Shown here: positions 1,016 to 54,586 of the stretch, one piece after another
How the letters are laid out: each line of letters begins with the position of its first letter
How positions within the stretch are numbered: position 1 is the stretch's first letter
Source: Planctomycetota bacterium
GTDB taxonomy: Bacteria; Planctomycetota; B15-G4
Direction of reading: 5' to 3'
DNA: 64,000 nucleotides
Assembly: GCA_029259725.1 (NCBI GenBank)
Contig: JAJDER010000045.1
Location: 15,799-79,798 of the forward strand
The notes under the pieces: model-generated
Database searches by the model: none
Told to the model about the DNA's origin: nothing
The model's input: only the letters and a program-made list of their open reading frames with translations
Program-made: the position numbers and the translations under genes

Positions 1016-2107
1016 ATGAGGTCTCTCGACACCGTCCCATCAGGAGTCCGTGCGAGTCGTCGGCAGTTCCTCGCGGGGCTGGGCGCCTCGGTGGGTGCGG
1101 CGACCGGACTCGCGGCGTGCTCGACGACCGGTCCGGGAGCCCGGGCCGTGGGTGCCTCGGCCGAAGCTCTCGCCGCGGCCGGCCACGGCGGCGGCGAGGA
1201 CCAACTCGTCGTCTCCACCTGGAAGTTCGGCATGGCGGCCAACGCGGCGGCGATGGCGGCCTTCGACGCCGGCGTCAGCCACCCGTTCGAAGCCTGCGAG
1301 GCCGGTGTGCGCGTGCCCGAGGCTGACCCAGAGATCAGCAGCGTGGGCTACGGCGGGTTGCCGAACGCGCACGGGGTCGTGCAGCTCGACAGCTGCCTGA
1401 TGCGCGGCGACACCCTGGGCTGCGGCGGCGTGGCGGCGCTCGAAGGCATTCTGCACCCGGTGTCCGTGGCACGGCGGGTCATGGAGCGCACACGGCACGT
1501 GCTTCTGGTGGGCGAGGGCGCGCGGCAGTTCGCGTTGTCGCAGGGGTTCCCGAGCCAGGACCTGACCACCGAGCGCTCGCGCGAGGCCTACCAGCGCTGG
1601 CGGGCGAATCAGCCCGCCGAGATCGTCGAGCCCTGGGAAGCGGCGCGACGCGACCCCAACGAGGACCACGACACGATCGGCATGATCGCCCTCGACGCCG
1701 GGCGCCTGGCGATGGCCGTGACCACCAGCGGGATGGGCTGGAAGCTGCCGGGCCGGGTGGGCGACAGCCCGATCATCGGCGCGGGTGGATACGCCGACGA
1801 CGCGGCCGGCGCGGTGGTCTCCACCGGCGTGGGCGAGGAGGTCATCCGGAGCTGCGGCAGCTTCGCCATCGTGGAGGGCATGCGCCGCGGGGCCACGCCG
1901 CTGGAGGCCTGCGCGGAAGTGTTGACGCGGATCCGCGACACGGTCACGCGCCTGCGTCCGACGGACTGGGCCGACGACGTGCAGGTGGGCTTCATCGCCG
2001 TGACACCCGAGGGCGAGGTGGCTGCGCTGGCCCTGCGCAAGGGCTTCACGTACGCGCTGTCGCGGCACGGCGAGACCGAGCTGATCGACGTCGAGCCGCT
2101 GGCATGA
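1016..2107 (+). CDS. Isoaspartyl peptidase / L-asparaginase (glycosylasparaginase-type Ntn hydrolase) with a Tat signal peptide.
   Basis: The start was chosen at the in-frame ATG at 1016, which gives MRSLDTVPSGVRASRRQFLAGLGASVGAATGLAAC, a twin-arginine signal. The body has asparaginase-2 family motifs (VVSTWKFG..., DTIGMIALDA, GAGGYADD, the autoproteolytic Thr region). Confidence 0.8.
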   Translation: MRSLDTVPSGVRASRRQFLAGLGASVGAATGLAACSTTGPGARAVGASAEALAAAGHGGGEDQLVVSTWKFGMAANAAAMAAFDAGVSHPFEACEAGVRVPEADPEISSVGYGGLPNAHGVVQLDSCLMRGDTLGCGGVAALEGILHPVSVARRVMERTRHVLLVGEGARQFALSQGFPSQDLTTERSREAYQRWRANQPAEIVEPWEAARRDPNEDHDTIGMIALDAGRLAMAVTTSGMGWKLPGRVGDSPIIGAGGYADDAAGAVVSTGVGEEVIRSCGSFAIVEGMRRGATPLEACAEVLTRIRDTVTRLRPTDWADDVQVGFIAVTPEGEVAALALRKGFTYALSRHGETELIDVEPLA

Positions 2108-2505
2108 GCGCGAACGGGAACGGTGCGCGCGCCCGGCAGCCCGGGCCGGGTGAGCGGGCCTTGATCGCCGAGAGCGAGTGGTACCGCGTGCTCGAGACGA
2201 GCGAGCCGGTGCACCAGTGGGGCTCGGCGCTGCTGGTCGAGCACGTCGGCGGCACCCTGCTGCTCTACGTGCGCGACACGTCGGGCGCCGAGAGGCACGC
2301 CTGCGTGCACCTGGACGCCGCGGCCACCGCTCGCGCTCGGGCAGGCGTGGCGCAGATCGAGGCGCTCTCGGCGGCGGCGGCGGACCTGGTCACGCGGCAG
2401 ATGGAGGAGGGCGCGACGTCGGCCCAGATCCAGGCGCAGCAGGACGCCAGCGCCGCCTTCGTCCAGTTGGCGGAAGAACTCTACCGCGAGCTGCTGTCCG
2501 CCTGA
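2104..2505 (+). CDS. Hypothetical protein (133 aa).
   Basis: The ORF overlaps the upstream stop by ATGA (translational-coupling geometry). I recognise no domain. Confidence 0.35.
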   Translation: MSANGNGARARQPGPGERALIAESEWYRVLETSEPVHQWGSALLVEHVGGTLLLYVRDTSGAERHACVHLDAAATARARAGVAQIEALSAAAADLVTRQMEEGATSAQIQAQQDASAAFVQLAEELYRELLSA

Positions 2506-2512
2506 TCGCCGG

Positions 2513-4174
2513 TCAGGCGGCGGCCTCGACGGCTTCCCTGCGCATCGGGTCACCGGCGCGCGCGGCGTCCGTCGGGTCCAGCGGCGGCCGCACGATCAGC
2601 GGCAGCCGGTTGCTGCGCGTGAGCCAGCCCTTGAGCTTGAGCCCCATGAAGTACGCGATCAGGCGCGGGTAGCGCGCCCAGCCGATGTCGTACCCCTCGC
2701 GCGCCTTCGGGAACTTCTTCACCGACCAGGTGTGCTTGAAGGCGTAGAAGGCGCGTAGGAGCGTCGGCATGCGCAGGACCCAGGCGACCTTCCACATCCC
2801 CGTGTCCCACAGCCAGTGCCCGATGCGGGGCCCGAACACATTGCGCACGTCCATGCGCTGGGCATAGACCTTGGCGAACTCGTTGCTGTAGTTGCGCGTG
2901 GTGCTGATGCAGCCGTGCTCGTCCTCCATGCCCGACTGCTGCTTGATGAAGGTGGCCTGCTCCTGCGTGATCGTGCCGGCGTCCACCGACTGCTGCAGCA
3001 CGTCCGCCCCGGCCCAGATGTCGAGCCAGTAGATCGAGACCACGTCGGCCGGGTGTTCGCGGTAGAAGCGCTCGAGCTTCTTGCAGTCCTCCTCGGTCTC
3101 GCCCGGGAGCCCGAAGATCTGGTCCACGTAGAGGCCGATGCCCTGCTCGCCGATCAGGTCGATGGCGTTGGCGATCTGGGCGTCGCTGTTCGGGCGCCCG
3201 ATCATCTTGCGGATCTCGGGGTTGAGCGACTGCACACCCATCTGCAGCTGCTGCACACCGATCGACTTCATCGCGGCGGCGGTGCGCTCGTTGACGTTGT
3301 TGGGGATCACGAAGGCCTTGAGCGGGATGCGCTCGGCGTCGGTCATCCGCTCGGCCAGCTCGAGCAGCCAGGGCTCGTCGGCGCAGATGTCGTCGTCGTT
3401 CACGCGCATCAACGGTGGGTTGTACCTGGCCTTCACGAAGCGCAACTCCGCGAGCACGTCGTCCACCGACCGGCTGCGCAGGAACTTGCGCGTGAACATG
3501 TAGTCCTTCTGGTCACCGAAGTAGATCTTGCGGTAGTAGTTGTTGCCGCAGAACGTGCAGCCCCACGGACAACCGCGGCGCCACTCGCTCATGTGCGCGA
3601 TCTGGAACGGCCGGCCCAGGTTCCAGAAGAGCTCCTTGTCCGACATGCCGTGCTTGTCGAGGTCCGCCTCGTACGGGCGGAGCGGGTTCTCGATGTAGGC
3701 GTCGTCCTCGTCCAGGTAGGCCAGGTTCTGGATCGAGCGATCGACGGCGCCGAGCTGCAACCCGGCCATCAGCTCGACCAGGGCTTCCTCGCCCTCGCCG
3801 CGGATGATCCAGTCGTAGAGCCCGCTGCGCAGCACCGACTCCCCGCTGGCCGTGGCGTGGTAGCCGCCGGCGAGGATCGGGATCTCGGGGAACTCCTCAC
3901 GGATGCGCCGGGCGTACTTGCAGCACCAGTCGTAGTTGGCCGTGAGCATCTGGAAGCCGATGACGTCCGGCTTGTACTCCCGGATCCGCTCCATGACCTG
4001 CTCCTCGAAGGAGAAGATCCGCTTCAGGAGGCGGTTGTTGTACTCGTGCCGGAAGAAGTCGAAGAGCTTGGGGTCGAAGACCAGCGCGGCCTCGTGCCCG
4101 GCCTTGCGGAGCGAGCTGCTCAGGTACTGCAGGCCGACACTCTCGACCTCGTTGTAGACAAACAGGACGCGCAC
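2513..4174 (-). CDS. B12-binding-domain radical SAM protein (class B radical SAM family).
   Basis: The start is a GTG at 4174 (VRVLFVYNEVESVGLQYLSS...), the first plausible start in frame. The N-terminus is a Rossmann-like B12-binding domain (DVIGFQMLTANY..., ILAGGYHAT). The radical SAM cluster motif is CPWGCTFC. The long upstream extension in the ORF track has no ATG and is Pro/Arg-rich, so it is probably read-through. Confidence 0.8.
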   Translation of the reverse strand: MRVLFVYNEVESVGLQYLSSSLRKAGHEAALVFDPKLFDFFRHEYNNRLLKRIFSFEEQVMERIREYKPDVIGFQMLTANYDWCCKYARRIREEFPEIPILAGGYHATASGESVLRSGLYDWIIRGEGEEALVELMAGLQLGAVDRSIQNLAYLDEDDAYIENPLRPYEADLDKHGMSDKELFWNLGRPFQIAHMSEWRRGCPWGCTFCGNNYYRKIYFGDQKDYMFTRKFLRSRSVDDVLAELRFVKARYNPPLMRVNDDDICADEPWLLELAERMTDAERIPLKAFVIPNNVNERTAAAMKSIGVQQLQMGVQSLNPEIRKMIGRPNSDAQIANAIDLIGEQGIGLYVDQIFGLPGETEEDCKKLERFYREHPADVVSIYWLDIWAGADVLQQSVDAGTITQEQATFIKQQSGMEDEHGCISTTRNYSNEFAKVYAQRMDVRNVFGPRIGHWLWDTGMWKVAWVLRMPTLLRAFYAFKHTWSVKKFPKAREGYDIGWARYPRLIAYFMGLKLKGWLTRSNRLPLIVRPPLDPTDAARAGDPMRREAVEAAA

Positions 4175-4308
4175 ACGGGACTCCCGGAATCGGGTTCGTC
4201 CGGCCGGGGAGGGGAGGTCGGCTGGGGACGGGGAGGAACGGGAGAGGATACCACGCGGACCCGGCGCGCGACGGCACCCGCGGGCCGCGCCGAGCTCCCG
4301 CAGCGGCC

Positions 4309-4379
4309 CTGGATCGGGCCTCGGATCAGGCCTCGGATCGGGCCAACGAGCGCGCCGAGCCGTGGCCCCGGATCGGGCC
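4309..4379. repeat. 12-bp direct repeats (YYGGATCRGGCC) in three perfect tandem copies plus a fourth copy 23 bp downstream, in the divergent radical SAM / LysW-like promoter region.
   Basis: Seen in the sequence: ctggatcgggcc (4309-4320), tcggatcaggcc (4321-4332), tcggatcgggcc (4333-4344), ccggatcgggcc (4368-4379). They are followed by a perfect TTGACA at 4393-4398, about 70 nt upstream of the 4467 ATG. Confidence 0.5.
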
Positions 4380-4466
4380 GCGGGCCAGGAGATTGACAAT
4401 TTCCGCGGGCGGTGTTGTCGTTCGAAAGACAGACGACCCGAGGCGCGGCCTGGCGGAGTGAGCGCG

Positions 4467-4697
4467 ATGTGGGAGTGCACCGAGTGCGGGACCGAGAACG
4501 ACCTGGATCCCGATGCCGAAGAGGCGCAGATCCTCGATTGCCTCGAATGCGGCGCCGAGTTCGAGATCGTGGCCTTGGATCCGCTCGAGCTGACGTTGCT
4601 CTTCGAAGCGCCTGACGAGGTCGTGCATTCCCTCGAGGGGGACGACGAGGCTGTCGACGACGATGACGACGACGACCGCGAACCCTGGGTCGGCTGA
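4467..4697 (+). CDS. LysW/ArgW-like zinc-ribbon amino-group carrier protein homologue (76 aa) with an atypical acidic C-terminal tail.
   Basis: The start is the ATG at 4467, with GGAG 8 nt upstream (MWECTECGTENDLD...ILDCLECGAEFEIVALDPLELTL...DDDDDDDREPWVG). Two CxxC pairs and a LysW-like core align by eye to Thermus LysW (CPECGAEL...CEDCGAELEVVGLDPLRLE...EDWGE). The tail ends EPWVG rather than EDWGE. Confidence 0.6.
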   Translation: MWECTECGTENDLDPDAEEAQILDCLECGAEFEIVALDPLELTLLFEAPDEVVHSLEGDDEAVDDDDDDDREPWVG

Positions 4698-4710
4698 GCG
4701 GCCCGAAGGT

Positions 4711-5472
4711 TCAGGACGGCTTGCGCGCCACCATCACGAGGGAGTGGCCCGCCGGCGCGCTGAGCGCCTTGAGCAGGGTGGCCTCGCTGCTGAAGATCGA
4801 GGTCAACACTTCGTTCATCCAGGTCGGGATGGGGATCCCCACGTTGCTGCCCGCGCCGGCGTCCGCGGGCTTGCTCAAGGACTGCCAGGCCTTCATCGCG
4901 AGCACGGCGGGCAGGATGCCCGGGAACAACAGGAAGTTGATGTAGCTCGCCTTGACGATCTCGAATCCCACCGAGCGAGCCTTCGCCTGCATGTCGCCCA
5001 GGGTGTAGCGGCGCACGTGGTGCGTCACGCGGTCCTGCTGGCTGAACAGGAACTGGTAGGCGGGCCCGGAGGCGACCAGCAGGCCGCCGGGCTTGAGCAT
5101 GCGATGGATCTCGCGCATCGAGCCGACGTCGTCCTCGATGTGCTCGAGCGCGTCGAAGGCGGTGATGCAGTCCAGCGTCTCGTCGGCGAAGCAGCCGTAC
5201 GGCCCGTTGCAGGCCACCAGCCGGTCGAAGTCCCGCTCGGCGCAGTGCATCAAGCCGGTCAGGGTCACGTCGGTGCCGATGACCCGCCCGTAGGCGCCGA
5301 GCGGCCCGAGCATGCCACCGACGCCGCACCCGAGGTCCATGATGAGCCGCTCGCCGATCCGCTCGCGCCTCAGGTAGGTGTCCAGCAGCGAGATGAAGAT
5401 CGCGCGGCGTCCACGGAACCACCAATGCCCCTGCTCCAGCTCGAGGAACTCCTGGTAGACCGAGGCTTCCAT
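4711..5472 (-). CDS. Class I SAM-dependent methyltransferase.
   Basis: The start is the ATG at 5472 (MEASVYQEFLELEQGHWWFRG...). Motif I is DLGCGVG, and it has an acidic post-I region and an LKPGG motif. The upstream part of the ORF is Pro/Arg-rich and unlikely to be coding. Confidence 0.75.
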   Translation of the reverse strand: MEASVYQEFLELEQGHWWFRGRRAIFISLLDTYLRRERIGERLIMDLGCGVGGMLGPLGAYGRVIGTDVTLTGLMHCAERDFDRLVACNGPYGCFADETLDCITAFDALEHIEDDVGSMREIHRMLKPGGLLVASGPAYQFLFSQQDRVTHHVRRYTLGDMQAKARSVGFEIVKASYINFLLFPGILPAVLAMKAWQSLSKPADAGAGSNVGIPIPTWMNEVLTSIFSSEATLLKALSAPAGHSLVMVARKPS

Positions 5473-5696
5473 GGGAGGTCCGCGTCGAAGGGGCGGGGGC
5501 GGGGCCGGCCGAGGCGGTCGGGGCCCGCCGTGGGGCGAAGGGCACCGGACACGGCACTCGAGGGCAGCGTCCGGCACGCGGGGCGCGGATTCTAGAGGGA
5601 TCCGGGAGGCCCGGGAAGATAACTTTGTACGGGCCGCCCGTCGGTGCGGGCGCGGCTGGGTGGGAGTTCTCGGGAGGACCGGTGGACCGGAACACG

Positions 5697-8507
5697 ATGC
5701 TGGCGGCAGCCGCGGCCGTGCTCCTGACTGCGCTCGCGTTGGTCGGACCGGCGCTGCTCCCCGGATCGGTCTTCCTGCCCTTGCTGCCTGAGGACTTTCC
5801 GGCCTGGGGCGCCGGCGAGGCGCCCGCCGCGGTCGCCCACCACCCGGCGCCCAATCGGAACATGTCCGACGTCCTGCACCTGCTCCTGCCGGGACTCGCG
5901 ACCACGGAGGCCGCCTTCTCCCGAGGTGAGCTGCCGCTGTGGGATCCCTCCCAGGCGCTGGGACTGCCCCACATCGATCAGGTGCACTACGGGGTCTTCT
6001 ATCCCCCGGCCTGGCTGCCGCTGCTCTTCGGCGTCTACGGCCTGGGGCTGATGGCCCTGGTCCACGTGCTCGTGGCCGGGTGGGGCATGCTGCTCTACCT
6101 GCGCACCATCGACCGCTCGACGGCGGCCTGCGTCGTGGGCGCCGTGTGTTTCGCCTGCTCGGCCTGGGTCATGGCGCGACTGCACGCCTTCCCGGTGGTC
6201 GGTGCGGCGGTGTGGACGCCGTGGATCCTGTGGGGCCTGGAGCGCGGGGCCCGGAACCGATCCTGGCGGCCCCGCATGGTGGCGGCCGCGGCCGTGGCGC
6301 TGTCGGTCTTCGCCAACTTCCCGCAGGTGACGATGTGGGTGCTGCTGCTCGCGGGCCTGCTCGAGGTGGTGCGCGTGCCGGCCTGGATGCGTGCCAGGCA
6401 AGGCGGTCCGGAAAGCCTGCTCGCGGCCGGCCTGACCGTCGCGCTCGGACTGGCGCTGGCCGCGCCGCAGGTGTTGCCGACGGCCGAGTACCTGCGCGGC
6501 GAGTCGGCGCGCAGCGACCAGACCGTGGAGGCGCTGCTGGCCGATGGCCTGGAGTGGCCCCTCTTGTGGCACCTGATCTCGCCCAACCACTACTCGGCGG
6601 CGCCCTTGGACCGCCCGGATCGGCCGCACCCGGTGGCGCTCATGGACCTCGAGCAGGCCGAGCGGCCGGTGGCGATCAACCGCGCCGAGACCTCCATGGG
6701 CATCGGCGCCCTGGGGCTGGTGTTGGCCCTGGTCGCGCTCGTGTTCGGGCGCAACTGGCGCACGCTGACCTTCTCGGCCGTGACCGTCGGCGTCTTCGCG
6801 CTCTTGCTGTGGCCTGGCGCCCTGGCCCTGGCCTACGACGTCCTGCCCCCGATCCGCTTCGGGAATCCCAAGCGGCTGCTGCTGTTGTCGACCTTCGCGC
6901 TCTCGGTGCTCGCCGCCGGTGGAGTGGACCTGGTGCGGACGCCGCGGCTCCCGGTCACGGTGGTGGCCTGGATCCTGTCGGTCGTGGGCCTGGCGGTGGC
7001 CGTGATGTTGCGGCTGTCGGTGCCCTCCGCGGCGCTGGCCGAGGACGTCGACACCTGGGCCGGACAGCTCCTGCGGCAGGCGGGTCGCAATCCCCTGGCC
7101 CTGGACGAGATCTTCGCCGTCATCCCGCGCGAGGCCTTCGCCGCCGCGGCGGCCATGTCCGCGGCGTCCTCGTTGCTGGCGGTGGCGGCCCTGGCCCTGG
7201 CGGTGCTCACCTTCCGGCCCAAGCGCAAGCTGACCTCGGAGGGGGGCTGGGCCACCTGGGCGCGGCGCAAGCCGACCCTGCTGGGCGTCTTCATCGCGGC
7301 CGAACTCGTGCTCGGCAGCTGGTCGCTCGTGCGCCCGGCGCCCGCCGCCGAGGTGGCGTCTCCGATCACCGACCTGGGCGCGGTGGAGGTTCCCGCGCTG
7401 GTGGTCGAGGTGCGCGCGTTGGCCCACGGCGACCCGGTGCCGCTGCGCATCGGCCGGTTCGGAAACGAGCCACCGTGGCTGCGCCCGGACTTCCCGAGCC
7501 TGTTCGGCCTCCACGACCTGCAGTGCTACGCACCCATGGCCCCGCGGCGCGTCACCGAGTTGCTCGACGCGCTGGAGCCGGGAGTCGTCGTCAACGGCTC
7601 GACCCTGGCCGGCTTCTCCGACCCGACCACGCTCTCGCGGCCGTTGCTCGACGGGCTGGGTGTCGACGTGCTGCTCACGGACCGTCCGGGCGAGCTGCCG
7701 GGTTGGAGCGATCGATCGCAGGTCGGCCTGGTGCGGGTGCTCGAGAACGACGAGGCCCTGCCACGGGCCCACCTGGTCCATGAGATCCGCGTGTTGCCGG
7801 GAGCCGAGGCGCGCCTGTCGTACCTGGTGTCCGATGAGTTCAACCCGCGCGCCGAGGTGGTGCTGTCCGCCGCGCCGCCGACGACGGACGTCGAGTGGCG
7901 CCGCCGTCGCGCGGCCGAGGCCGTGCGGCGCAATGCCGGCGTGCCCGTGGTGACCGAGGAGGCGGTGATGCCGGAGCCCGCCGCAGGGCCCCGCACGGCC
8001 CGCGTCGTGGACTACGCGCCGGGTCACCTGCGCGTGGTCGTCCCGGCCGGAGAGCCGGGCTTCCTCGTCGTCAGCGAGACCTGGAACCGGAACTGGCGGG
8101 CGCGGGTGGGGGCCGAGGAGGCGCCCGTGGTCGAGGCCGACCACGCGATCCTGGCCGTGCCGGTGGAGTCGCCGCACGAGGTGGTCGTGACCCTGGACTA
8201 CGAGCCGGGCAGCGTCACCTGGGGGCTGCGCATCGCCGCGGGCGCCACGCTGCTGCTGGTGCTGGGACTCTTCGTCGGGCGCGGCCGGCCGCGGGGCACG
8301 GTGCCGCCGCCACCCGGTGCCCACCCCGACCTGTTGACCGGCGAGCCGGTCACCAGGGTCACCCGGCGTTCCGAGGTGCCGGGGCTGTCGGCGGACACCG
8401 GTGGAGCGCAAGCGGCCCCGCCGAGCGGGGAGACAGGCGACGGCGAGGGCGGCGGCGAGGGCGGCGGCAAGGGTGGCGGTGAGGGTGGCGGTGCGCCCCG
8501 AGGCTGA
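5697..8507 (+). CDS. YfhO-like polytopic membrane protein (putative GT-C type glycosyltransferase) with a Gly/Glu-rich C-terminal tail.
   Basis: It has more than 10 predicted TM helices and a YfhO-like N-terminal region (LLPGLATTEAAFSRGELPLWDPS..., FYPPAWLPLLFG). The start is uncertain: the ATG at 5697 gives MLAAAAAVLLTALALV, while the ORF track begins at a TTG at 5625. The C-terminus is GETGDGEGGGEGGGKGGGEGGG. Confidence 0.5.
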   Translation: MLAAAAAVLLTALALVGPALLPGSVFLPLLPEDFPAWGAGEAPAAVAHHPAPNRNMSDVLHLLLPGLATTEAAFSRGELPLWDPSQALGLPHIDQVHYGVFYPPAWLPLLFGVYGLGLMALVHVLVAGWGMLLYLRTIDRSTAACVVGAVCFACSAWVMARLHAFPVVGAAVWTPWILWGLERGARNRSWRPRMVAAAAVALSVFANFPQVTMWVLLLAGLLEVVRVPAWMRARQGGPESLLAAGLTVALGLALAAPQVLPTAEYLRGESARSDQTVEALLADGLEWPLLWHLISPNHYSAAPLDRPDRPHPVALMDLEQAERPVAINRAETSMGIGALGLVLALVALVFGRNWRTLTFSAVTVGVFALLLWPGALALAYDVLPPIRFGNPKRLLLLSTFALSVLAAGGVDLVRTPRLPVTVVAWILSVVGLAVAVMLRLSVPSAALAEDVDTWAGQLLRQAGRNPLALDEIFAVIPREAFAAAAAMSAASSLLAVAALALAVLTFRPKRKLTSEGGWATWARRKPTLLGVFIAAELVLGSWSLVRPAPAAEVASPITDLGAVEVPALVVEVRALAHGDPVPLRIGRFGNEPPWLRPDFPSLFGLHDLQCYAPMAPRRVTELLDALEPGVVVNGSTLAGFSDPTTLSRPLLDGLGVDVLLTDRPGELPGWSDRSQVGLVRVLENDEALPRAHLVHEIRVLPGAEARLSYLVSDEFNPRAEVVLSAAPPTTDVEWRRRRAAEAVRRNAGVPVVTEEAVMPEPAAGPRTARVVDYAPGHLRVVVPAGEPGFLVVSETWNRNWRARVGAEEAPVVEADHAILAVPVESPHEVVVTLDYEPGSVTWGLRIAAGATLLLVLGLFVGRGRPRGTVPPPPGAHPDLLTGEPVTRVTRRSEVPGLSADTGGAQAAPPSGETGDGEGGGEGGGKGGGEGGGAPRG

Positions 8508-8553
8508 GTCGGCCGCTCGCTTCGCCGAGGTCTGCTCCGGATACGATGTCCGC

Positions 8554-11289
8554 ATGACGGGCGACGACAGGCACACGGGACGAGGATCACGGCGCGTGGC
8601 CTCGACCGCGCCGGCGCGGCAGCGCGTGCTGCCGTTCGCGCGGCTGTGCGTGCTGCTGTGCGTGCTGCTGCTCGGGCTCGTGACCGCGGCGTGCGCGGAC
8701 CCACCGGCGCCGCCCGTCGTGCTGCGCCTCTGGCGTGACGTCGCACCGGTGGCCGTCAGCGGCCCGCCGGCCACCTCGAGTGAGTGGGAGATCCTGATCG
8801 ACAGCGACCTTCGCCACGGGGCGGCGACGGCGCTGTCCTTCCGTCGCATCGTCGACCGCGAGGGTGAGTGGGTGCCCGTGCCCTTCGAGCTGCCCGCGCA
8901 GGGGCCGCTGGTCCTGCGCCGGTCGAGTGGCTGGAGCCTGGTGACCACGCTGCCGGTGCGCTCGGGCGATGCGCTGGCCGTGGAGATCACCGTGCGCGGC
9001 GAGGGGGCGGGCGTCGGCGAGACGGTCAACGTCGGCGCCGTCGTCGAGCTGGCCGAGCCCTGGGATCACGAGCGCCGGTTGTCGGGCCAGGACGTGCTCG
9101 ACCTCTTCGACGAGAGCCGCCACGCGTCGGTGACCCTCGAGGGACCGGTGAGGGCGACGTCGACGGTGTTCGCGGCCGAGTTCGCGTTGGACAGCCGGAC
9201 GCGCGAGGTGGCGCTGTTCCTCACGGCGCCCTGGGATGGCAAGCCCGAGCGCTTGGTCTTCGAGCGCCTGGTCGTGAAGCGTCAGGCGCTGTCGGGGTGG
9301 GTGGCCGCGGGCGGCACGGTGCCTCGGCTGGACCGCATCGTGGGGCCCGGAGGTGCGGACGCCGATCGCTCGCCGGCGACGGGCGCGGTGCGCGTGCGCT
9401 TCGATCGCGACGAACGCGAGGGCCTGCTGGCCCTCGCGCCGACGTCGTATGCCTATGACCTGCCACCCTGGCCCGAGGTGCGACTGCTGGACGTGGCGCT
9501 CGGCGTGCGCCCCGAGCCGCGCGATCCGGCAGGCCCCGCCGCGCGCATGTACCGCACCGCGACGTTCAAGGTGGAAGCCGGGGGCGAGCTCTTCTTCGAG
9601 GAGTCCTTCACGGCGCCCGACGAGATCACGCAACCGGCCTGGCGCGATCGCCGCATCGTGTTGCCGCCCAGCCCCGACGGGCCCCTGCGACTGGTGTTGT
9701 CCACGGAGGTCTGGGCCGTGGGCGGCGAACCACCCCTGGCCGTCTGGGGGCATCCCACGGTGCGCACGCCGCGTGTGTCGCCGAGGCCCTCCGGGGCGCC
9801 CGCGTCGCCCACGTCGCCCACGCCGCCCACGCCGCCCACGCCGGCCCCGCCGCCCACGCCGGCCGGCTCGCGCGCCCCGCACGTCGTGCTGATCTGCCTC
9901 GACACGCTTCGCCCCGACCGGCTGGGCTGCTACGGCGGGCCGGCGGGCAACAGTCCGCGCCTGGATGCGCTGGCCGCCGAGGGTGTGCGCTTCACCCGCG
10001 CGTACTCGACCACCAGCTACACCCTGCCTTCGCACGCGTCGCTGATGACCGGGCAGTTCCCGGCGTTGCACGGTGCGGTGGACGTGGTCGACAAGCTGTC
10101 GACGCAGCGCTCGGCGTTCCTGGCCGACCAGCTCGCCCGCGCCGGCTACGTCACGGCCGCGTTCACCGGCGGCGGCTACGTGTCGACGGACTACGGTTTC
10201 GGCAACGGGTTCGATCGCTACTCACACAACGACCCGGTCTGGGCCACCGAGACGGTGCGCGGCGCGCAGCTGGTCAACACGGTGAGCTGGCAGCGCAACC
10301 CGGTCCAGCTCGACCTGCTGCGGCGCTACGACGCCGAGGCGGTCACGGACTGGATCGGGAGCCAGCAGCCGGACGTGCCGTTCTTCCTGTTCCTGCACAC
10401 CTACATCGTCCACAACTACGCGCCCGACAACACAAGGCTGGAGGCGCGTGAGCTGCTGACGGACGACTTCGAGCAGCGGCCCTTCGACCACCGCGCGCGG
10501 ACCCGCTTCAACGCGGGCGAGCTGGAGCTGCGCGACGAGGTCTACGACGCGTACATGCCCTTCTACGACGCGACCGTCGCCATGGCCGACGAGTTCGTCG
10601 GTAAGGTCCTCGACGCCCTGGGCCACGCGGGGTTGGCCGACGACACCCTCGTGATCGTGACCTCCGACCACGGCGAGGAGTTCGGCGAGCACGACTTCTT
10701 CGGCCACGGTGAGACGCTCTACGACAGCAACGTGCGCATCCCCATGATCGCGCGGCTGCCGCGCGGCGCGGCGGACGGCGCCCTGGCCGGCACGGTCACG
10801 GACCAGCCGGTGAGCCTGGTGGACGTCGCGCCGTGGATCCTGCGGGTTGCCGGCCTGGAACCGGATCCGCGCATGTCCGTGCGGCCGCCGCTCGGTCCCG
10901 ACCAGGTCAGCCCGCCCGGCCGTGAGCTGACCTTCATCGAGCTGGACACGCACCGCAGCCGCAAGAGCGCGGTGGTGCTCGACGAGCTCAAGCTGCACGT
11001 GCAGCTCGGCGAGAACGGCGAGGACCTGCCCGAGGAGCGGCATCAGCTCTACGACGTCGGCACCGACCCCGCCGAGGAGCACGACGTGTTCGCCGAGCAT
11101 GACGACAGGGCGGCGTTGCTGCGCGAGCGACTCGCCGGCCTGCACCGCCTCGGTGAGGTGCTCAATCCGCGCGGCGACACATCGCTCTCGCTCGAGGACC
11201 TGGAGGGCATGGACCCGGCGCTCCTCGAACAGCTGCGCGCGCTGGGCTACCTGGAGCTGCTGGGCGGCGGGACGGACGACGACGGTTGA
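8554..11289 (+). CDS. Two-domain secreted protein or lipoprotein: an N-terminal ~430-aa domain of unknown function, a Pro/Thr-rich linker, and a C-terminal S1-sulfatase-like domain with a non-canonical Thr/His active-site motif.
   Basis: The start is the ATG at 8554 (MTGDDRH...RLCVLLCVLLLGLVTAAC, a signal or lipobox-like sequence). The sulfatase fold runs from HVVLICLDTLRPDRLG. The signature reads TTSYTLPSHASLMTG at 10012-10056 (TLPSH at 10021-10035) instead of C/S-x-P-S-R. The linker is SPTSPTPPTPPTPAPPPTPA. Confidence 0.7.
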   Translation: MTGDDRHTGRGSRRVASTAPARQRVLPFARLCVLLCVLLLGLVTAACADPPAPPVVLRLWRDVAPVAVSGPPATSSEWEILIDSDLRHGAATALSFRRIVDREGEWVPVPFELPAQGPLVLRRSSGWSLVTTLPVRSGDALAVEITVRGEGAGVGETVNVGAVVELAEPWDHERRLSGQDVLDLFDESRHASVTLEGPVRATSTVFAAEFALDSRTREVALFLTAPWDGKPERLVFERLVVKRQALSGWVAAGGTVPRLDRIVGPGGADADRSPATGAVRVRFDRDEREGLLALAPTSYAYDLPPWPEVRLLDVALGVRPEPRDPAGPAARMYRTATFKVEAGGELFFEESFTAPDEITQPAWRDRRIVLPPSPDGPLRLVLSTEVWAVGGEPPLAVWGHPTVRTPRVSPRPSGAPASPTSPTPPTPPTPAPPPTPAGSRAPHVVLICLDTLRPDRLGCYGGPAGNSPRLDALAAEGVRFTRAYSTTSYTLPSHASLMTGQFPALHGAVDVVDKLSTQRSAFLADQLARAGYVTAAFTGGGYVSTDYGFGNGFDRYSHNDPVWATETVRGAQLVNTVSWQRNPVQLDLLRRYDAEAVTDWIGSQQPDVPFFLFLHTYIVHNYAPDNTRLEARELLTDDFEQRPFDHRARTRFNAGELELRDEVYDAYMPFYDATVAMADEFVGKVLDALGHAGLADDTLVIVTSDHGEEFGEHDFFGHGETLYDSNVRIPMIARLPRGAADGALAGTVTDQPVSLVDVAPWILRVAGLEPDPRMSVRPPLGPDQVSPPGRELTFIELDTHRSRKSAVVLDELKLHVQLGENGEDLPEERHQLYDVGTDPAEEHDVFAEHDDRAALLRERLAGLHRLGEVLNPRGDTSLSLEDLEGMDPALLEQLRALGYLELLGGGTDDDG

Positions 11290-11804: not shown

Positions 11805-14492
11805 TCAGTTCCCCGGCAGCAGCAGCGGCTTGAGCGTCGCGAAGAAGTGCTGGATCTCCAGCCGGCTGTCGACTTCCTCGAGGTGTCCGCGTGCGTCGAG
11901 GGCCTGCAGGAACTCGTAGGCCTTGACCAGGTAGGCGATGTCACCCGTATGGCGATAGCCCTCGGCCATGCCGAGCAGGATCGTCTGGAAGTCGGACTGC
12001 GTCTCGCTCACGGTCTGCTGCAGGCTGACCGCGTAGCTGTAGATCAGGTGCCGGTCCTCGACGACCGGGTTGTAGGGGTACAGCTCACCCTCGACGTAGG
12101 TCGCGAGGTCCACGCCGCGCAGGCGCGCGAGCAGGCCGTCGGGGTCGGTGGGGGCGTCGTCCAGCAGGTAGCGGGACGTGTGGTAGTAGGCCAGCGGGCC
12201 GAGGGTGGCGGTGATGAAGCCGCGCGTGATGTAGTTCTCGCCCGGCGGCTTCTCGCTGTTGCCCTGCGTGCTGTTGACGTAGTATCCGCGGCTTCCGGCG
12301 CCCGGCGGGGCTTCCCAGCCGAAGCCGTCCACGAGCGTGTTCACGTCGAGGGTCGGCGTGGCGATGTACTGCAGGTGCTCGCGCAGCTTCGCCACCAGGG
12401 GGTCGGTCAGCGCCGGCGTGTGATCCAGCGCGTCGGCCACGAAGACCATGGCCCGCAGCGTCTGGTAGGCGGAACGCTCGTGCTCGTTGGGGTCCAGGTC
12501 GAGCAGGATCTCGACCTCGTCCAGCAGCGCCTCCAGGTAGCGGTCGTCGCCGGTGAGCAGGAAGGCCCACCAGATGCCCTCGCGGTAGCGGTGCTCCTTG
12601 TCGCCCTGGAACGCCGTCGAGTGGGGCAGCTCCGGGTTGATCGCGCCGGGGTCGTCGACGTGAGCGAAGTCGTCGCTGCGCTCGATCTGCCACTCCGACT
12701 TGTACAGCGCCTCGTCGAGGCCGCGCTGGATCCCGCCGCCGGTGCCGGCGCGCAGGAACTCGTCCATGAGCCGGCGTTCGCTGCTGGCGTGGTTGTTCTC
12801 ACCGCCGCCCTGACCCGCCGGCAGGTGTCGGATGACGCGCGCCGAGAGGTTCTTGATGTTGACGTTGTGGTTGAAGCCCAGCGCCGCGTAGAGCGCGTTG
12901 TGTTCGGCCAGGGTCACGAGGTCGTAGGGAATGCAGCCGCTCTCGTCGTAGGCCTTGTAGTCCACGGCGCGGGCGAGGGCGGGCAGGTCGAGTCGACGCG
13001 CGACCTCCTCGGGCGCCTGCGGCCCGCCGGAGTGGAAGGCGAACACCGCCGTGCGGCTCTCGTGCTGCCGCCACGCGAAGGTGTACCCGGCCGGGTTGCG
13101 CCGCGTGAAGAGTCCTGCGACGAGCCAGCCGTCGCCGGTGGTCTCGAGCGCGCCGGGCCAGGTGAAGGCCGCGTGTTGCAGGGCGCACGTCACGCCGCCG
13201 TTGTCGCCCCACAGGGCGACCCAGCCTTCCTGCGGAGTCTCGTCCTTGGTCGTCTGCAGCAGGACCTGCTCGTCGTATCCGAAGGTCCAGCCCTCCTGGG
13301 CGAGGGTGGTCGCGTCGAGCTTGGGGATGTGCGGCTTGTAGGCGCTGCCGTTGCCCTCGACGCCACCGGTGTTCGCGTTGCTGTAGGCCTGGTACGCGTA
13401 GGCCGAGTGAGCCGGTGCGAGTTCGACCGTGCCCGGGCCGAGCGGGGTGTCGAACCGCGCCTTGGTGTCGGCGCCCGTGTTCAGCTTGAGCACCAGCTCG
13501 ATCCAGCGGAGTGGGGTGTGCTGGGGCCGCTCGATGGAGGCGTTGCGCACCGTGAAGATCGTCTTGACCTCGCGCGAACCGGCCGCGAACTCGAGCCGGC
13601 AGGTGAAGTCGATGACCTTGGTGCCGGCCGCGTTGACGAGGGTGCCATCGGCGCGGATCTGGGCCGACGCGGGACCGTTGTGCAGCACGCTCACGAGGGT
13701 GTCGTCGGCGGGGAAGAGCAGGTTGCCGTCGATGTCGCTGGCGAGGATGCCGGGACTGGTCCCGGGGCTGACGAGCTCGACGCCGTCCACGAGGACGCGC
13801 TCGAAGACGCGGTAGCTGGTCGTGGAGACCTCGACCTGCAGCGGGCCGGTGTCCACAGCCAGCCGTCCGCCGAGGTCGGTGACCAGGTCGGTGCCCGCCG
13901 ACTGGCCCGGACCGAGGGTCACGTCGACGTTGCTGTCGACGCCCTCGCCCACGTGCAGCACGGCCGAACCGAGCGCCCACTTGGCGGTACCCTCGGGCCA
14001 CACGTCGAGCAGCCGGAACTGCCAGGCCTCGCTGCCCTTGATGCGCAGGGCGGGGCGCCCGTCGATGATCGGCACGGCCAGGCTGCGCGCGAGGGGCACG
14101 GCGAAGAGGGTGAGACGATCCGCCGGCTGATAGGTGTGGGCGTCCTTGGGGCTGACGGCGCTCACCACGAAGGGCACCGAGTAGGCGCCCACCTCCTCGG
14201 TCGTTCCCCCCGGGCCACCCGGATCGCCGGGATCCTCCCCACCGGGACCGGTGGGATCCTCGCCGCCGGGCGGGGGCTCGGACGGCGGGTCCTCACCACT
14301 GCCGGGGTCGCTTCCCCCGGGAGCTCCGGGCGGCTCTCCGCCGGGGGCCCCGCCACCACCGCCGCAGGACGACAGTCCGACGATCAGGAGCAGGGCCAGG
14401 AGGAAGACGGAGAAGCTGGACGAGGAGCGGGACGAGATCGGGGAGACCACGCCGCGCCGGCCCGATCGGGACGGGATGCGGAGAGCACTCAT
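11805..14492 (-). CDS. Large lipoprotein (895 aa), paralogue A; function unknown, possibly a polysaccharide-lyase-like alpha/alpha toroid protein.
   Basis: The N-terminus is MSALRIPSRSGRRG...FLLALLLIVGLSSCGGGGG, with lipobox LSSC followed by a Gly/Pro-rich linker. The C-terminal ~350 aa are clearly homologous to the protein at 14861-17380 (GENYITRGFITATLGP..., LLGMAEGYRHTGD.AYLVKA, ARGHLEE.D.RL..QHFF). Confidence 0.6.
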   Translation of the reverse strand: MSALRIPSRSGRRGVVSPISSRSSSSFSVFLLALLLIVGLSSCGGGGGAPGGEPPGAPGGSDPGSGEDPPSEPPPGGEDPTGPGGEDPGDPGGPGGTTEEVGAYSVPFVVSAVSPKDAHTYQPADRLTLFAVPLARSLAVPIIDGRPALRIKGSEAWQFRLLDVWPEGTAKWALGSAVLHVGEGVDSNVDVTLGPGQSAGTDLVTDLGGRLAVDTGPLQVEVSTTSYRVFERVLVDGVELVSPGTSPGILASDIDGNLLFPADDTLVSVLHNGPASAQIRADGTLVNAAGTKVIDFTCRLEFAAGSREVKTIFTVRNASIERPQHTPLRWIELVLKLNTGADTKARFDTPLGPGTVELAPAHSAYAYQAYSNANTGGVEGNGSAYKPHIPKLDATTLAQEGWTFGYDEQVLLQTTKDETPQEGWVALWGDNGGVTCALQHAAFTWPGALETTGDGWLVAGLFTRRNPAGYTFAWRQHESRTAVFAFHSGGPQAPEEVARRLDLPALARAVDYKAYDESGCIPYDLVTLAEHNALYAALGFNHNVNIKNLSARVIRHLPAGQGGGENNHASSERRLMDEFLRAGTGGGIQRGLDEALYKSEWQIERSDDFAHVDDPGAINPELPHSTAFQGDKEHRYREGIWWAFLLTGDDRYLEALLDEVEILLDLDPNEHERSAYQTLRAMVFVADALDHTPALTDPLVAKLREHLQYIATPTLDVNTLVDGFGWEAPPGAGSRGYYVNSTQGNSEKPPGENYITRGFITATLGPLAYYHTSRYLLDDAPTDPDGLLARLRGVDLATYVEGELYPYNPVVEDRHLIYSYAVSLQQTVSETQSDFQTILLGMAEGYRHTGDIAYLVKAYEFLQALDARGHLEEVDSRLEIQHFFATLKPLLLPGN

Positions 14493-14860: not shown

Positions 14861-17380
14861 TCAGTCCACGCCGTCGAGACTCTCGAGGTAGGCGTGGAAG
14901 AAGTGCTGATGGTCGAGTCGCGTGTCCATCTCGTCGAGGTGGCCGCGAGCCTCGAAGGACTCGATCATCTCGACCGCCTTGACCAGGTAGCCGGGGTCGC
15001 AGGTGAGGCGCCAGCCCTCGGCCATCGCCAGCAACAGCGTGTGGTGGTCCGACGACGTGAAGCTGTGCACGGTCTGCAACTGCACGCCGTAGCTGTAGGC
15101 GAGGTGCCGGTCGGCGGGATCGTCGAACCACGGGTGCAGTTCACCGCGCGCGTACGTGGCCAGGTCCAGCAGCCGGTCCGCGGCGAGCAGCCCGTCAGGG
15201 TCCTCCGGTCCGAGGAAGTCGCTCACCAGATGGAAGGCGATGGGGCCGAGCGTGGCCGAGATGAAGCCGCGCGTGACGTAGTTCTCGCCGGGCGGCTTCT
15301 CGCTCTGGCCCTGGGAACTGTTCACGTAGTAGCCGCGCTCGCCCAGGCCCGGCAGGGTTTCCCAGCCGTAGCCGTCCGCGCCGGTCTCCACGTCGAGCAA
15401 GGGAGTCGAGAGGCCGGCCAGCCAGCTGCGCATGGCGTCCACGAGGGGGGCCTGCAACTCCGGCTGATCGTCGGTGAAGCGGGCCAGGTGCACGAGCGCG
15501 CGCAGGGTCTGGTAGGCCGAGCGCTCCTGCGGCGTGAAGGCCAGCGTGGGCAGGATCTCGGCCTCGTCGAGGAGCGCCTCGCGGTAGCGCGGGTCGCCGG
15601 TGAGGTAGTAGGCCCAGAGGATGCCGGCGCGGTAGCGGTGCTCCTTGTCGCCTTCGTGATTCGTCGTGTGAGGGACCTCGTCATCGATCGCGCCCGGGTC
15701 CTCACCGTGGTGGAACCCATCGCTGCGCAGGATCTGCCACTCGCTCTTGTAGAGCGCCAGTTCCAGGCCGCGCTGCAGGGCGCCGCCGCTGCCGAAGCGT
15801 TGCCAGTGGTCGAGCAGGTGCTTCTCGATGATCGCTTCGTTGTTGGATCCGCCGGTCTGATGCGCCGGGAGGAAGCGCGTGATCCGGCGCGTCTTGTCGC
15901 TGGGCAGGGGCGCGTGATCGAGACCCAGCGCGGCGTAGACGGCCTCCTGCTCGCCGGGCGTGACCAGGTCGTAGGGGATCGTGCCGCTCGCACGCAGCCA
16001 GTTCGGGTCCGCGAGTCGTCCGAAGACCGGCGCATCGAGTCGACGCGCGCACTGCTCGGGATCGGCGGGGTCCCCGGCATGGAAGGCGAAGAGCGCCGTC
16101 CGGCTCTCGTGCTGTCTCCAGGTGAAGGTGTAGTCGACGGCGTTGCGCGCCGTGAACACGCCGGCCATGGCCGTTCCGTCGGCGATCGCCTCCAGACCCG
16201 CCGGCCACAGGAACGGCATCTCTCGGATGGCGACGGTCACGCCGCCCTCGGGCGCCGACAGGTCCATCCACCCGTGCTCGGGCCACTCCTCGCGCGACGT
16301 CTGCAGCGTGACCTCGCCGTCGACGACGAGGCGGAAGCCCTCCTCGGCCAGCGTGTTCGCGTCGAGTTTGGGGATGTGCGGAAGGTAGCCGGGGCCGGGC
16401 CCCTCGACACCGTCCGTGTTCGAGTCGCTGTAGGCCTGGTAGGCGTGGGCCGCGGTGCCCGCCGGGAGGGGGATCTCCTGGACGCCGTCCGGCACGGCGA
16501 ACAGCGCGGTGAGTCCGCCCTCGGGGACGATGCGCAGCCCCAGCTCCACCGAGCCGACGAGCGTGTGCTGGGGCCGCTCGAGGTTGGCGTTGCGCACGGT
16601 GGTCACGACGACGACGTCGCGGGAGCCCGCCTCGAACGCGAGACGCAGCGTGACGTCGATCACGCCCTCGCCGGAGGCGTCCCCGAGCGTGCCGTCCCAG
16701 CGCAGCGCGGAACGCGCGGGCCCGTTCTCCTCCAGGAGCACGACCGCGCCCGGCAGCGGCACGAGCGGATCGCCGGTCGCGGCGGCCGTGGCGATGAGGC
16801 CGGGGCTGGACCCGGGGCGCACGATCTCGGTGCCGTCCACCACGACGTGCTCGAACAGGCCGAGGCCGTCGTAGCGCACGGTGGCCTGCAGCGGCCCGGT
16901 GTCCACGAGCCAGCCGTCGGGCTTGGCGCGCACCAGTTCGTCCTGCCCGGAGTCGCCTGCACCGGTCTCGACGGTGAGGGTCGGCTTCACACCCTGCCCC
17001 ACGACCACCCGCGCGCGGCCCAGCGCCCACTTCACCGAGCCGTCGGGCCAGGTGTCGAGGGCCTCGAACTGCCAGGTGTCGCTGCCGACCACGGACAGTT
17101 GCGGACGGCCGCCCACGATCGGGATCGCGAGCCCCTGGGGAAGCGGGAGCCCGAAGGTGGCGATGCGGTCGGTGGCGAGGTAGGGAGCAGCGTCGGTGGG
17201 CTGGTAGGGCTCGACGAGGATGTCGGTGGGGAGTTGCACCGAGCCGAGCACGCCATCGTCGGTGGAGATCGTGGCGGTGTCGCCACCCTCGCCCGCAGCG
17301 TCGCCGCCGGCGTTGTCCCCGCCGGGTCCACCGCCGCACGCGCTGCAGAGGACCCCGAGCGCGACGGAGACGAGGCGCAC
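14861..17380 (-). CDS. Large lipoprotein, paralogue B of 11805-14492 (about 840 aa).
   Basis: There is no in-frame ATG near the signal peptide. The start was chosen as the GTG at 17380, giving (M)RLVSVALGVLCSACGGG, with a GGCGAGG Shine-Dalgarno-like sequence just upstream. The conserved C-terminal block reads GENYVTRGFISATLGP..., LLAMAEGWRLTCDPGYLVKA, ARGHLDEMDTRLDHQHFF. The upstream 330 codons in the ORF track are probably not translated. Confidence 0.55.
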   Translation of the reverse strand: MRLVSVALGVLCSACGGGPGGDNAGGDAAGEGGDTATISTDDGVLGSVQLPTDILVEPYQPTDAAPYLATDRIATFGLPLPQGLAIPIVGGRPQLSVVGSDTWQFEALDTWPDGSVKWALGRARVVVGQGVKPTLTVETGAGDSGQDELVRAKPDGWLVDTGPLQATVRYDGLGLFEHVVVDGTEIVRPGSSPGLIATAAATGDPLVPLPGAVVLLEENGPARSALRWDGTLGDASGEGVIDVTLRLAFEAGSRDVVVVTTVRNANLERPQHTLVGSVELGLRIVPEGGLTALFAVPDGVQEIPLPAGTAAHAYQAYSDSNTDGVEGPGPGYLPHIPKLDANTLAEEGFRLVVDGEVTLQTSREEWPEHGWMDLSAPEGGVTVAIREMPFLWPAGLEAIADGTAMAGVFTARNAVDYTFTWRQHESRTALFAFHAGDPADPEQCARRLDAPVFGRLADPNWLRASGTIPYDLVTPGEQEAVYAALGLDHAPLPSDKTRRITRFLPAHQTGGSNNEAIIEKHLLDHWQRFGSGGALQRGLELALYKSEWQILRSDGFHHGEDPGAIDDEVPHTTNHEGDKEHRYRAGILWAYYLTGDPRYREALLDEAEILPTLAFTPQERSAYQTLRALVHLARFTDDQPELQAPLVDAMRSWLAGLSTPLLDVETGADGYGWETLPGLGERGYYVNSSQGQSEKPPGENYVTRGFISATLGPIAFHLVSDFLGPEDPDGLLAADRLLDLATYARGELHPWFDDPADRHLAYSYGVQLQTVHSFTSSDHHTLLLAMAEGWRLTCDPGYLVKAVEMIESFEARGHLDEMDTRLDHQHFFHAYLESLDGVD

Positions 17381-17635
17381 GCCTCGCCACGTGGACCGGC
17401 GTCGACGACAGCGACGTCGTGGGGCCGTCACGTCGGCAGACGACGCGACGGCTCGTTCGGGGTGACAGCGCCCGGATGCGTGCACGAGATGAGCCCAACC
17501 GCCCAGGTGGCAGAGTCCAGGGAGTGGTCCTACCCTGCCGACCCGCGAGCCCGTCTTCCACCCCTTCCCGACGGGGTTCGGCGAGTGCCATGATTCGCCG
17601 TCCGTCGCTGCCGTTCCTCCGTCCCCGGAGTCGTC

Positions 17636-18433: not shown

Positions 18434-18449
18434 GCGCGCGGTGTGTGCC

Positions 18450-34596: not shown

Positions 34597-34635
34597 CCTA
34601 GCATCGGGCGTCCGCGCCCCGTGAGACGTGGGTGG

Positions 34636-48110: not shown

Positions 48111-48240
48111 GGTGCTGGAACCTTACCGCCGGGGCATAGGTCCGGCAAACGGGCTGGGAGAGGGGCGATGCGCCCGACCCTTGAGCCTAAGGCATGATCG
48201 GCTCGGCAGGCGCTACGGCTCCAGGATTCCCGGTTGGAAG

Positions 48241-52994: not shown

Positions 52995-53034
52995 TCGCCG
53001 TCCCGCCGACCCAGCCCCTCCACCCCCGACACCC

Positions 53035-54051: not shown

Positions 54052-54054
54052 TCG

Positions 54055-54552: not shown

Positions 54553-54586
54553 TCCGGCCCGGGACCAGAAGAAGGAGACAAGAGAG

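Follow-up and report, generated by a model that had tools for sequence, protein, structure and literature searches.

A LysW-fold zinc-ribbon protein with a polyanionic tail and a non-canonical C-terminus in a clade of Planctomycetota

Introduction

To our knowledge, LysW has so far been known solely as a covalent amino-group carrier, acting in the biosynthesis of lysine, arginine and ornithine and, in Streptomyces, in a few pathways for natural products. It is passed between LysX, LysZ, LysY, LysJ and LysK by non-covalent docking of its acidic parts onto basic surfaces or pockets of these enzymes. The characterised LysW and ArgW proteins carry zinc-binding cysteines (three to four in the definition of this feature), and their C-terminal EDWGE motif is recognised by the GSWGR motif of LysX/ArgX (PMC10433800). 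The substrate is ligated to the gamma-carboxyl of the terminal Glu, and mutating this residue in the ArgW of Natrinema gari (E54A) abolished the function (PMC10433800). Here we describe a LysW-like gene located at 4467-4697(+) of a 64,000-nucleotide stretch of a Planctomycetota genome (assembly GCA_029259725.1, contig JAJDER010000045.1, positions 15,799 to 79,798), which is called the window throughout. The gene lies between the genes of a class B (B12-binding) radical S-adenosylmethionine (SAM) enzyme and a class I SAM methyltransferase. An earlier interpretation made from the letters alone (the sequence-only reading) took these three genes for a new carrier-protein pathway or for a tailoring system like those of ribosomally synthesized and post-translationally modified peptides (RiPPs), and mentioned with the least stress that a LysW paralogue might have been repurposed as a zinc-ribbon adaptor. 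Our comparison of the locus with canonical LysW systems and with related loci indicates that the LysW-like protein is most likely neither an amino-group carrier nor a substrate of the adjacent radical SAM enzyme.

Fold and composition of the LysW-like protein

The gene translates to MWECTECGTENDLDPDAEEAQILDCLECGAEFEIVALDPLELTLLFEAPDEVVHSLEGDDEAVDDDDDDDREPWVG, in which two CxxC knuckles (CTEC and CLEC, with four Cys in total), the core GAEFEIVALDPLEL, a run of seven Asp (D7) and the end EPWVG can be recognised. In Pfam, PF21344 (Zn_ribbon_LysW) matched residues 3-44 with an E-value of 5.7e-12 and a score of 45.5 bits (gathering score, 27), and the match spans positions 2-43 of the 46 in the profile, which establishes family membership over the whole domain. 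The scores fell short of the equivalog cutoffs, at 33.6 for TIGR01206 (lysW; cutoff, 53.2) and 29.4 for NF041070 (cutoff, 75), with the globular part alone aligning in both cases. The family assignment of the sequence-only reading thus stands for the hidden Markov model (HMM) of the Pfam domain and fails for TIGR01206. A phmmer search of the PDB sequences returned LysW exclusively (5k2m_E, 4.8e-6; 3wwl_A, 8.9e-6). The AlphaFold2 (AF2) model has a predicted local distance difference test score (pLDDT) of 74-86 for residues 1-44 and of 50-62 for the tail, and the six best matches of this model in a Foldseek search of the PDB are without exception chains of LysW (Thermus, Thermococcus and Sulfolobus), with probabilities of 0.98-1.0 and template modelling (TM) scores of 0.66-0.80 when normalised to the target. 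The domain HMM, the PDB sequence matches and the predicted fold therefore concur on the LysW architecture that had been read from the translation.

The protein consists of two parts, a globular region that contains the four Cys (approximately residues 1-45) and a disordered polyanionic tail (residues 46-76). Its composition is extremely skewed, with 29 Asp and Glu residues and a single Lys or Arg, which gives a net charge of about -28 and an isoelectric point of ~4.05. The G+C fraction at third codon positions (GC3) is 0.83 and the codon usage is native. We conclude that the 76-residue gene encodes a genuine cytoplasmic LysW-fold zinc-ribbon protein with a long disordered polyanionic tail.

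Departure from the LysW and ArgW carriers

The window protein shares with LysW and ArgW (TIGR01206; PDB 3WWL, 5K2M and 3VPB) the zinc-ribbon fold with two CxxC knuckles and a CG-E-[FL]-E-[IV]-V...DPL-L core, as well as strong acidity and a flexible acidic C-terminal tail containing Trp. It differs from them in lacking both EDWGE and a terminal Glu, and the terminal residue is not conserved among its orthologues; it stays below the equivalog cutoffs; it has no lysX/argX or lysZYJ-type neighbour; and the inter-knuckle loop of its clade, ENDLDPDAEEGQI, is far more conserved than that of canonical LysW.

For comparison, a canonical planctomycete lysW was present at locus L020, from a Planctomycetia genome. 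It encodes 56 residues ending in EEDWGE, scores 70.7 bits against PF21344, and is directly followed by the genes of LysX (with LysX_preATP_grasp and RimK domains) and LysY. We searched the window and all 120 fetched loci (1.86 Mb) by tblastn with LysX and LysY of L020, a set that included ~25 loci of the window's clade and ~65 loci of an Acidobacteriaceae family described below, and matches at E ≤ 0.01 were obtained in L020 alone. LysX and LysY were thus found within ~10 kb at none of the ~25 clade loci and at none of the ~65 Acidobacteriaceae loci. In the window itself, Pfam scans of every credible open reading frame (ORF) of the 64 kb gave no ATP-grasp/RimK, AA_kinase, Semialdhyde_dh or Aminotran_3 domain. 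The sequence-only reading had stated that the pathway enzymes are missing from the 64 kb, and this is right for an ATP-grasp enzyme and for LysZ, LysY and LysJ; for LysK it needs correction, as the window holds a peptidase of the M20 family, which also includes LysK and ArgE. This M20/ArgE-type peptidase is encoded at 62168-63310(+), beside purQ and 57 kb from the LysW-like gene, and nothing connects the two.

Taken together, the LysW-like protein agrees with LysW/ArgW in its fold, and departs from them in its motif, its terminal residue, its HMM scores and its local synteny. It is not a canonical carrier, and the sequence-only reading was right in describing a non-canonical LysW with no canonical partner enzymes nearby.

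Orthologues and selection

We looked for relatives of the window protein with protein searches, both word-indexed and exhaustive, and with a single scan of genomes and another of metagenomes. We obtained ~20 distinct orthologous loci, all of them on metagenome contigs or in metagenome-assembled genomes of Planctomycetota, and the LysW-like protein represents a subfamily limited to one Planctomycetota clade. The globular domains of the orthologues are 60-73% identical, and the four Cys and the acidic inter-knuckle loop, whose consensus is given above, are nearly invariant; all 15 orthologues compared from other loci retain the four Cys and a D/E-L-D...EEGQ loop. The ratio of nonsynonymous to synonymous substitution rates (dN/dS) between the window gene and its orthologues, calculated by the Nei-Gojobori method over 43 codons, was 0.20-0.45 in 14 of 15 comparisons and 0.71 against L102. 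In the window, the frame is unbroken, and the protein retains its four Cys along with every globular residue that is invariant in the clade. The LysW-like gene is therefore real and under purifying selection.

The C-terminal tail

The window tail is ~20 residues longer than that of canonical LysW and finishes with DDDDDDDREPWVG, so that the terminal residue is Gly and EDWGE is absent; the divergent tail with its D7 run and its EPWVG end without a terminal Glu, which the sequence-only reading had pointed out, is indeed what the translation contains. We considered that a frameshift artefact in the GAC run might have produced this end, and there is no obvious one: neither of the other two frames past the run restores DW[DG]E, and long poly-acidic tails are likewise found in the closest relatives. 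An identical protein is encoded on a separately assembled contig from run SRR15505516, probably built from the same reads.

The clade tails are always acidic, and G-D-W-[DE]-[DE] is their commonest end (for example DDWDE, DDWDD, GDWEE and SDWED), with DLDE and DEDWD as further ends. In the long-tailed sub-branch to which the window protein (REPWVG) belongs, the tails end in DDDDWTSDE, GDEDWD, SWDDED, AWDDD or DMDAEDE, and Trp is located two to five residues from the end or is missing, with no fixed distance. The last residue varies across the clade between E, D and G, and among ~20 clade tails the window's alone has no acidic residue past the aromatic position.

Distribution of the three genes

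The presence of each gene was determined by tblastn of the window proteins against all fetched loci, among which ~21 are related to the window. All three genes, LysW-like, radical SAM and methyltransferase, occur together at 12 distinct loci (the window, L002, L007, L009, L088, L089, L094, L097, L099, L100, L102 and L103). Five loci have the LysW-like and methyltransferase genes with the radical SAM gene missing (L003, L010, L011, L012 and L090), three have the methyltransferase and radical SAM genes with the LysW-like gene missing (L095, L096 and L118), and at one locus (L098) the radical SAM gene stands among sulfatases, without the other genes. At the three loci that lack the LysW-like gene, the distance from the methyltransferase stop to the radical SAM start is 155 bp (L095), 13 bp (L096) and 108 bp (L118), no reading frame of this gap contains a remnant of a zinc ribbon, and the radical SAM orthologue begins with VR[VI]LF[LV]YNEVES. 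In a neighbour-joining tree of the methyltransferases, the loci without the radical SAM gene fall on at least four separate branches and those without the LysW-like gene on two; these scattered absences imply that each gene was lost or gained independently more than once. Loci that have the radical SAM gene cannot be told by their tail features from those that lack it. In the window, the LysW-like gene lies antisense between the co-directional methyltransferase and radical SAM genes.

The arrangement recurs in about a dozen related loci, and the sequence-only reading is thus not refuted by the condition that it had set itself, a triad conserved in no related genome. Its proposal of the triad as a new carrier pathway or as RiPP-like tailoring is not supported, however, in view of the independent absence of the radical SAM and LysW-like genes in several lineages. 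The LysW-like gene occurs independently of its radical SAM neighbour, and the triad is no functional unit.

Acidic-tailed LysW-fold proteins in other lineages

A profile search of 1.84 billion representative proteins at E ≤ 1e-3 gave 264 relatives. Among the best 150 of these 264, six end in EDWGE, and at least 45 complete sequences have acidic-aromatic ends (...DEDWD, ...EEESW, ...DSDY, ...EEDY) or poly-D/E runs. The window subfamily therefore belongs to a much larger population of acidic-tailed orphan LysW-fold proteins. Several relatives (P0016, P0017, P0019, P0020, P0026 and P0030) are tandem proteins, in which two or three LysW-like zinc ribbons are found in one polypeptide, each followed by a Trp-containing acidic linker.

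One group of the orphans is a family present in dozens of Acidobacteriaceae genomes (L013-L087, for example L025:10001-10195), with proteins of 62-69 residues, mostly 64, and the tail ...EEVADEEEE. The gene is located between a rhomboid protease gene and a gene for a 114-residue CarboxypepD_reg-like protein, the start of which overlaps the stop of the LysW-fold gene, and the locus lies near the genes of AspRS, HisRS and ribosomal protein S1. We found no ATP-grasp gene within 10 kb of the Acidobacteriaceae genes. These proteins resemble the window protein in their globular domain (50-55% identical), in the poly-acidic tail and in the lack of an ATP-grasp gene over this distance, and they differ from it in having a poly-Glu tail without Trp near the end, another genomic context and another phylum. 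Two other orphan LysW-fold loci showed no recurring partner, the neighbours being unrelated (ThiF, SNase) or the contigs too short. A full-text literature search on orphan or acidic-tailed LysW-like proteins returned nothing beyond work on canonical LysW/ArgW.

Interpretation of the LysW-like protein

We favour, with a probability of about 0.55, the explanation that the LysW-like protein is a stand-alone acidic zinc-ribbon adaptor or regulator, which would act non-covalently and carry no substrate. This corresponds to the repurposed LysW paralogue that the sequence-only reading had stressed least, and it gives the best fit to the evidence. By analogy with LysW, the protein would have kept the non-covalent half of LysW behaviour, in the form of a conserved acidic globular face and loop together with an acidic, usually Trp-bearing tail, and these may dock onto a positively charged surface or pocket of a partner, which the protein would serve as an adaptor or regulator. 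The covalent half, substrate loading on the gamma-carboxyl of the terminal Glu, would have been lost. The position of the gene, antisense inside the co-directional pair of methyltransferase and radical SAM genes, would then reflect the history of gene order.

Several points weigh against the adaptor explanation. The putative adaptor role draws on an analogy with the way in which LysW binds its enzymes. The window tail is an outlier in its own clade and is known from one genome. The G-D-W-[DE]-[DE] of most clade members, with Trp at -3, resembles EDWGE; because ~20 kb per genome was covered, a carrier-like docking with a ligase encoded elsewhere is still conceivable. Finally, the LysW-like gene adjoins the methyltransferase gene in 17 of the ~21 loci, in which the flanking proteins are ~50% identical, and this adjacency could reflect function, not inheritance.

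An alternative explanation is a true amino-group carrier for another pathway, whose substrate would sit on the acidic tail and whose ATP-grasp ligase and tailoring enzymes would be encoded at other places in the genome. The LysW fold and the acidic surface agree with such a role, as does the terminal carboxylate side chain that most clade members present by ending in D-W-[DE]-[DE], and canonical LysW systems do exist in Planctomycetota, as L020 demonstrates. We nevertheless regard a carrier as unlikely, given that the window protein ends in Val-Gly, that the terminal residue of the orthologues alternates between E, D and G while the Trp position drifts within the sub-branch, that both equivalog cutoffs are missed, and that no LysX or LysY gene is found around the clade or Acidobacteriaceae genes over the distance searched, whereas the canonical lysW of L020 adjoins lysX. 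The adjacency to the methyltransferase gene raises another explanation, that the protein regulates or activates the adjacent class I methyltransferase as one of its subunits. The concept of a small zinc-ribbon protein activating such enzymes is known, Trm112 with its methyltransferases being an example, and a gene that abuts the methyltransferase gene at so many related loci would suit this role. It is improbable all the same: the two genes are convergent and not co-transcribed, the orthologous methyltransferases of L095, L096 and L118 and the homologues (45-50% identity) in YfhO clusters have no such small gene locally, and the protein has no Trm112 match in Pfam.

That the protein is a RiPP-precursor-like substrate of the B12-radical SAM enzyme, of the methyltransferase or of both appears very improbable. 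Apart from the proximity of the genes in 12 loci, it could draw on the similarity of the radical SAM enzyme to models of RiPP C-methyltransferases, which is weak and below threshold (TIGR03975, 78 vs 282 bits; ApyD, 82 vs 750) and amounts to a generic class B signal common to lipid and phosphonate methylases. In the enzyme, Pfam and NCBIfam detect neither an RRE/PqqD nor a SPASM domain, the conserved part of the putative substrate is a folded zinc ribbon with no leader/core arrangement, and at least five loci without the radical SAM gene have a LysW-like gene that is unchanged, while at least four loci have the radical SAM gene without the LysW-like gene. There is also a low probability that the window gene is a decaying, non-functional copy in this genome, in which the terminal acidic motif of the clade has been lost. 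The PWVG end, alone among ~20 clade tails in having no acidic residues past the aromatic position, speaks for decay; on the other side, no damage is seen in the frame, in any of the four Cys or in the clade-invariant globular residues, the codons are native (GC3, 0.83), dN/dS against the orthologues is well below 1, and the tails of the sub-branch are variable anyway.

Beyond the adaptor explanation for the window protein, the clade proteins might form, together with the acidic-tailed orphans of Acidobacteriota, Planctomycetota and other phyla, a new functional class that uses the LysW docking principle outside lysine and arginine biosynthesis, for example by regulating or escorting a basic enzyme or by carrying a substrate with the help of a ligase encoded elsewhere. 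We raise this broader idea tentatively and place it on the doubtful side. What the data do establish is that purifying selection also maintains LysW-fold proteins without the EDWGE/terminal-Glu chemistry and with no ligase nearby, so a PF21344 match does not imply an aminoadipate pathway and should be annotated with caution. The window gene reveals no new radical-SAM-dependent carrier pathway and no evidence of new chemistry; it does delimit a defined family of small acidic proteins, which is worth an interaction screen.

Neighbouring genes and their associations

The coordinates of the LysW-like gene and its neighbours are collected in Table 1. In the clade, the block order is Asparaginase_2 lipoprotein, orf133, radical SAM (at some loci), LysW-like, methyltransferase, YfhO-like and, usually, a sulfatase-domain protein, and the flanks outside this conserved block vary. 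The gene positions noted by the sequence-only reading are accurate, with a divergent radical SAM gene across a shared region that it put at 290 bp (292 bp as measured), a convergent methyltransferase gene 13 bp away, and a YfhO-like membrane protein next door.

Table 1 Features of the LysW-like locus in the window (positions are those of the 64,000-nucleotide stretch).
Feature	Position	Strand	Details
Asparaginase_2 (Ntn-hydrolase) lipoprotein	1016..2107	+	PF01112, 215.8 bits; longest ORF from 647
orf133, conserved 133-aa protein	2104..2505	+	Start overlaps asparaginase stop (translationally coupled)
Class B (B12-binding) radical SAM enzyme	2513..4174	-	Coding sequence (CDS) 2516-4174, stop 2513-2515; 553 aa; GTG start
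Intergenic region between divergent radical SAM and LysW-like genes	4175..4466		292 bp; 12-bp tandem repeat
LysW-fold zinc-ribbon gene	4467..4697	+	76 aa; stop codon within coordinates; PF21344, PDB phmmer, AF2/Foldseek, dN/dS
Class I SAM methyltransferase	4711..5472	-	CDS 4714-5472; 253 aa; Methyltransf_11/23/25
YfhO-like (GT-C type) large membrane protein	5625..8507	+	ORF 5625-8504; 960 aa; start codon uncertain
Sulfatase / alkaline-phosphatase-superfamily protein	8401..11289	+	~950 aa; C-terminal PF00884, 165 bits; start uncertain

The radical SAM enzyme has a PF02310 domain (72 bits, residues 6-135) followed by a PF04055 domain (73.8 bits, residues 200-369) with the CxxxCxxC motif CPWGCTFC. 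It shares this order, an N-terminal B12-binding domain and then a CxxxCxxC core, with the class B radical SAM methyltransferases (PhpK/Sden_1168 P-methylases, HpnR, BchE and RiPP C-methylases). It differs from them in staying below every curated subfamily threshold of NCBIfam, with NF038361 of the Sden_1168 P-methylase family as the best match (112 bits against a cutoff of 575), and in that its closest context is the methyltransferase/YfhO/sulfatase envelope cluster. The distant homologues (29-47% identity) share none of the window neighbours and do not help with the substrate. One of them, 38% identical, opens a row of three B12-binding radical SAM genes at L105:6001-10584, downstream of the genes of an ArsP-type permease, a DsbD-like membrane protein and an SBF/ACR3-like transporter, and this run may belong to an organo-arsenic or similar pathway.

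The methyltransferase gene is upstream of the radical SAM gene on the same strand and divergent from the YfhO-like gene, and its orthologues are 62-78% identical. Both it and the radical SAM gene have a GC3 of 0.96-0.97, indicating native genes. The match of the YfhO-like protein to YfhO (PF09586) is weak, at 29.8 bits vs 28.5, and the family is also matched in the orthologues, which are 46-63% identical and adjoin the methyltransferase wherever the sequence suffices. The genes of more distant methyltransferase homologues (45-50% identity) directly precede one or two YfhO-like genes on the same strand, in clusters that hold Wzm/Wzt-type ABC transporter genes, GT2, a GLF-like flavoenzyme, nucleotidyltransferases and PMT_2; in these distant glycan clusters the LysW-like gene and the radical SAM orthologue are both absent. 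Because the distant homologues keep the YfhO pairing, the lasting partner of the methyltransferase is the YfhO-like GT-C-type protein and not the LysW-like protein, and from this pairing we infer surface-glycan or lipid modification. The window resembles these ABC-transporter-type clusters in its methyltransferase (45-50% identical) and its YfhO-like protein (~26-27% identical). It differs in that the pair of the window's clade is divergently transcribed and in that this clade adds the sulfatase-domain protein, the exported Asparaginase_2 lipoprotein and orf133, which are joined at some of the loci by the radical SAM and LysW-like genes. The methyltransferase, radical SAM, YfhO-like and sulfatase genes of the window appear to form a cluster for cell-envelope glycan or lipid modification.

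At the right of the block, the sulfatase-domain gene lies 3' of the YfhO-like gene and is kept there in most related loci. The left edge is the Asparaginase_2 gene, whose product carries a Tat-type signal (RRxFL) and a lipobox Cys in the window and in every orthologue examined. The adjoining orf133 has orthologues in nearly all related loci and no Pfam or NCBIfam match; its AF2 model, with a pLDDT of 88, contains a five-stranded beta-sheet and a long helical hairpin and has no significant fold match in the PDB, and the three homologues recovered by search gave no functional lead. The PADLOC defence models gave generic weak matches to the radical SAM and methyltransferase genes alone. A scan of 2300-5800 showed no sigma-70-like promoter or terminator above the shuffled expectation. 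The 292 bp that separate the LysW-like gene from the radical SAM gene contain the 12-bp tandem repeat GGATCGGGCCTC, in 2.8 copies at 4311-4344, with an extra copy, GGATCGGGCC, ~30 bp downstream; the repeat could be an operator or a mere simple repeat.

Other features of the window

Two adjacent genes at 11808-14492(-) and 14864-18574(-) encode paralogous predicted lipoproteins of ~900 residues each, which have long similar stretches and no Pfam match at E ≤ 1e-5. A cluster resembling type II secretion or type IV pilus systems is found at 52302-62064(+). It codes for a secretin, GspF and a GspE/PilB ATPase that has an MshEN domain, and includes, upstream, four ORFs without a Pfam match. Two further radical SAM genes are located at 32554-34635(-) and 46797-48122(-). 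One of them has a Radical_SAM_N2 domain and stands beside an ABC exporter gene pair, a trio that L002 also has close to its conserved block. The second encodes a SPASM-domain enzyme, beside a squalene-hopene-cyclase-like repeat protein and a HEAT-repeat protein.

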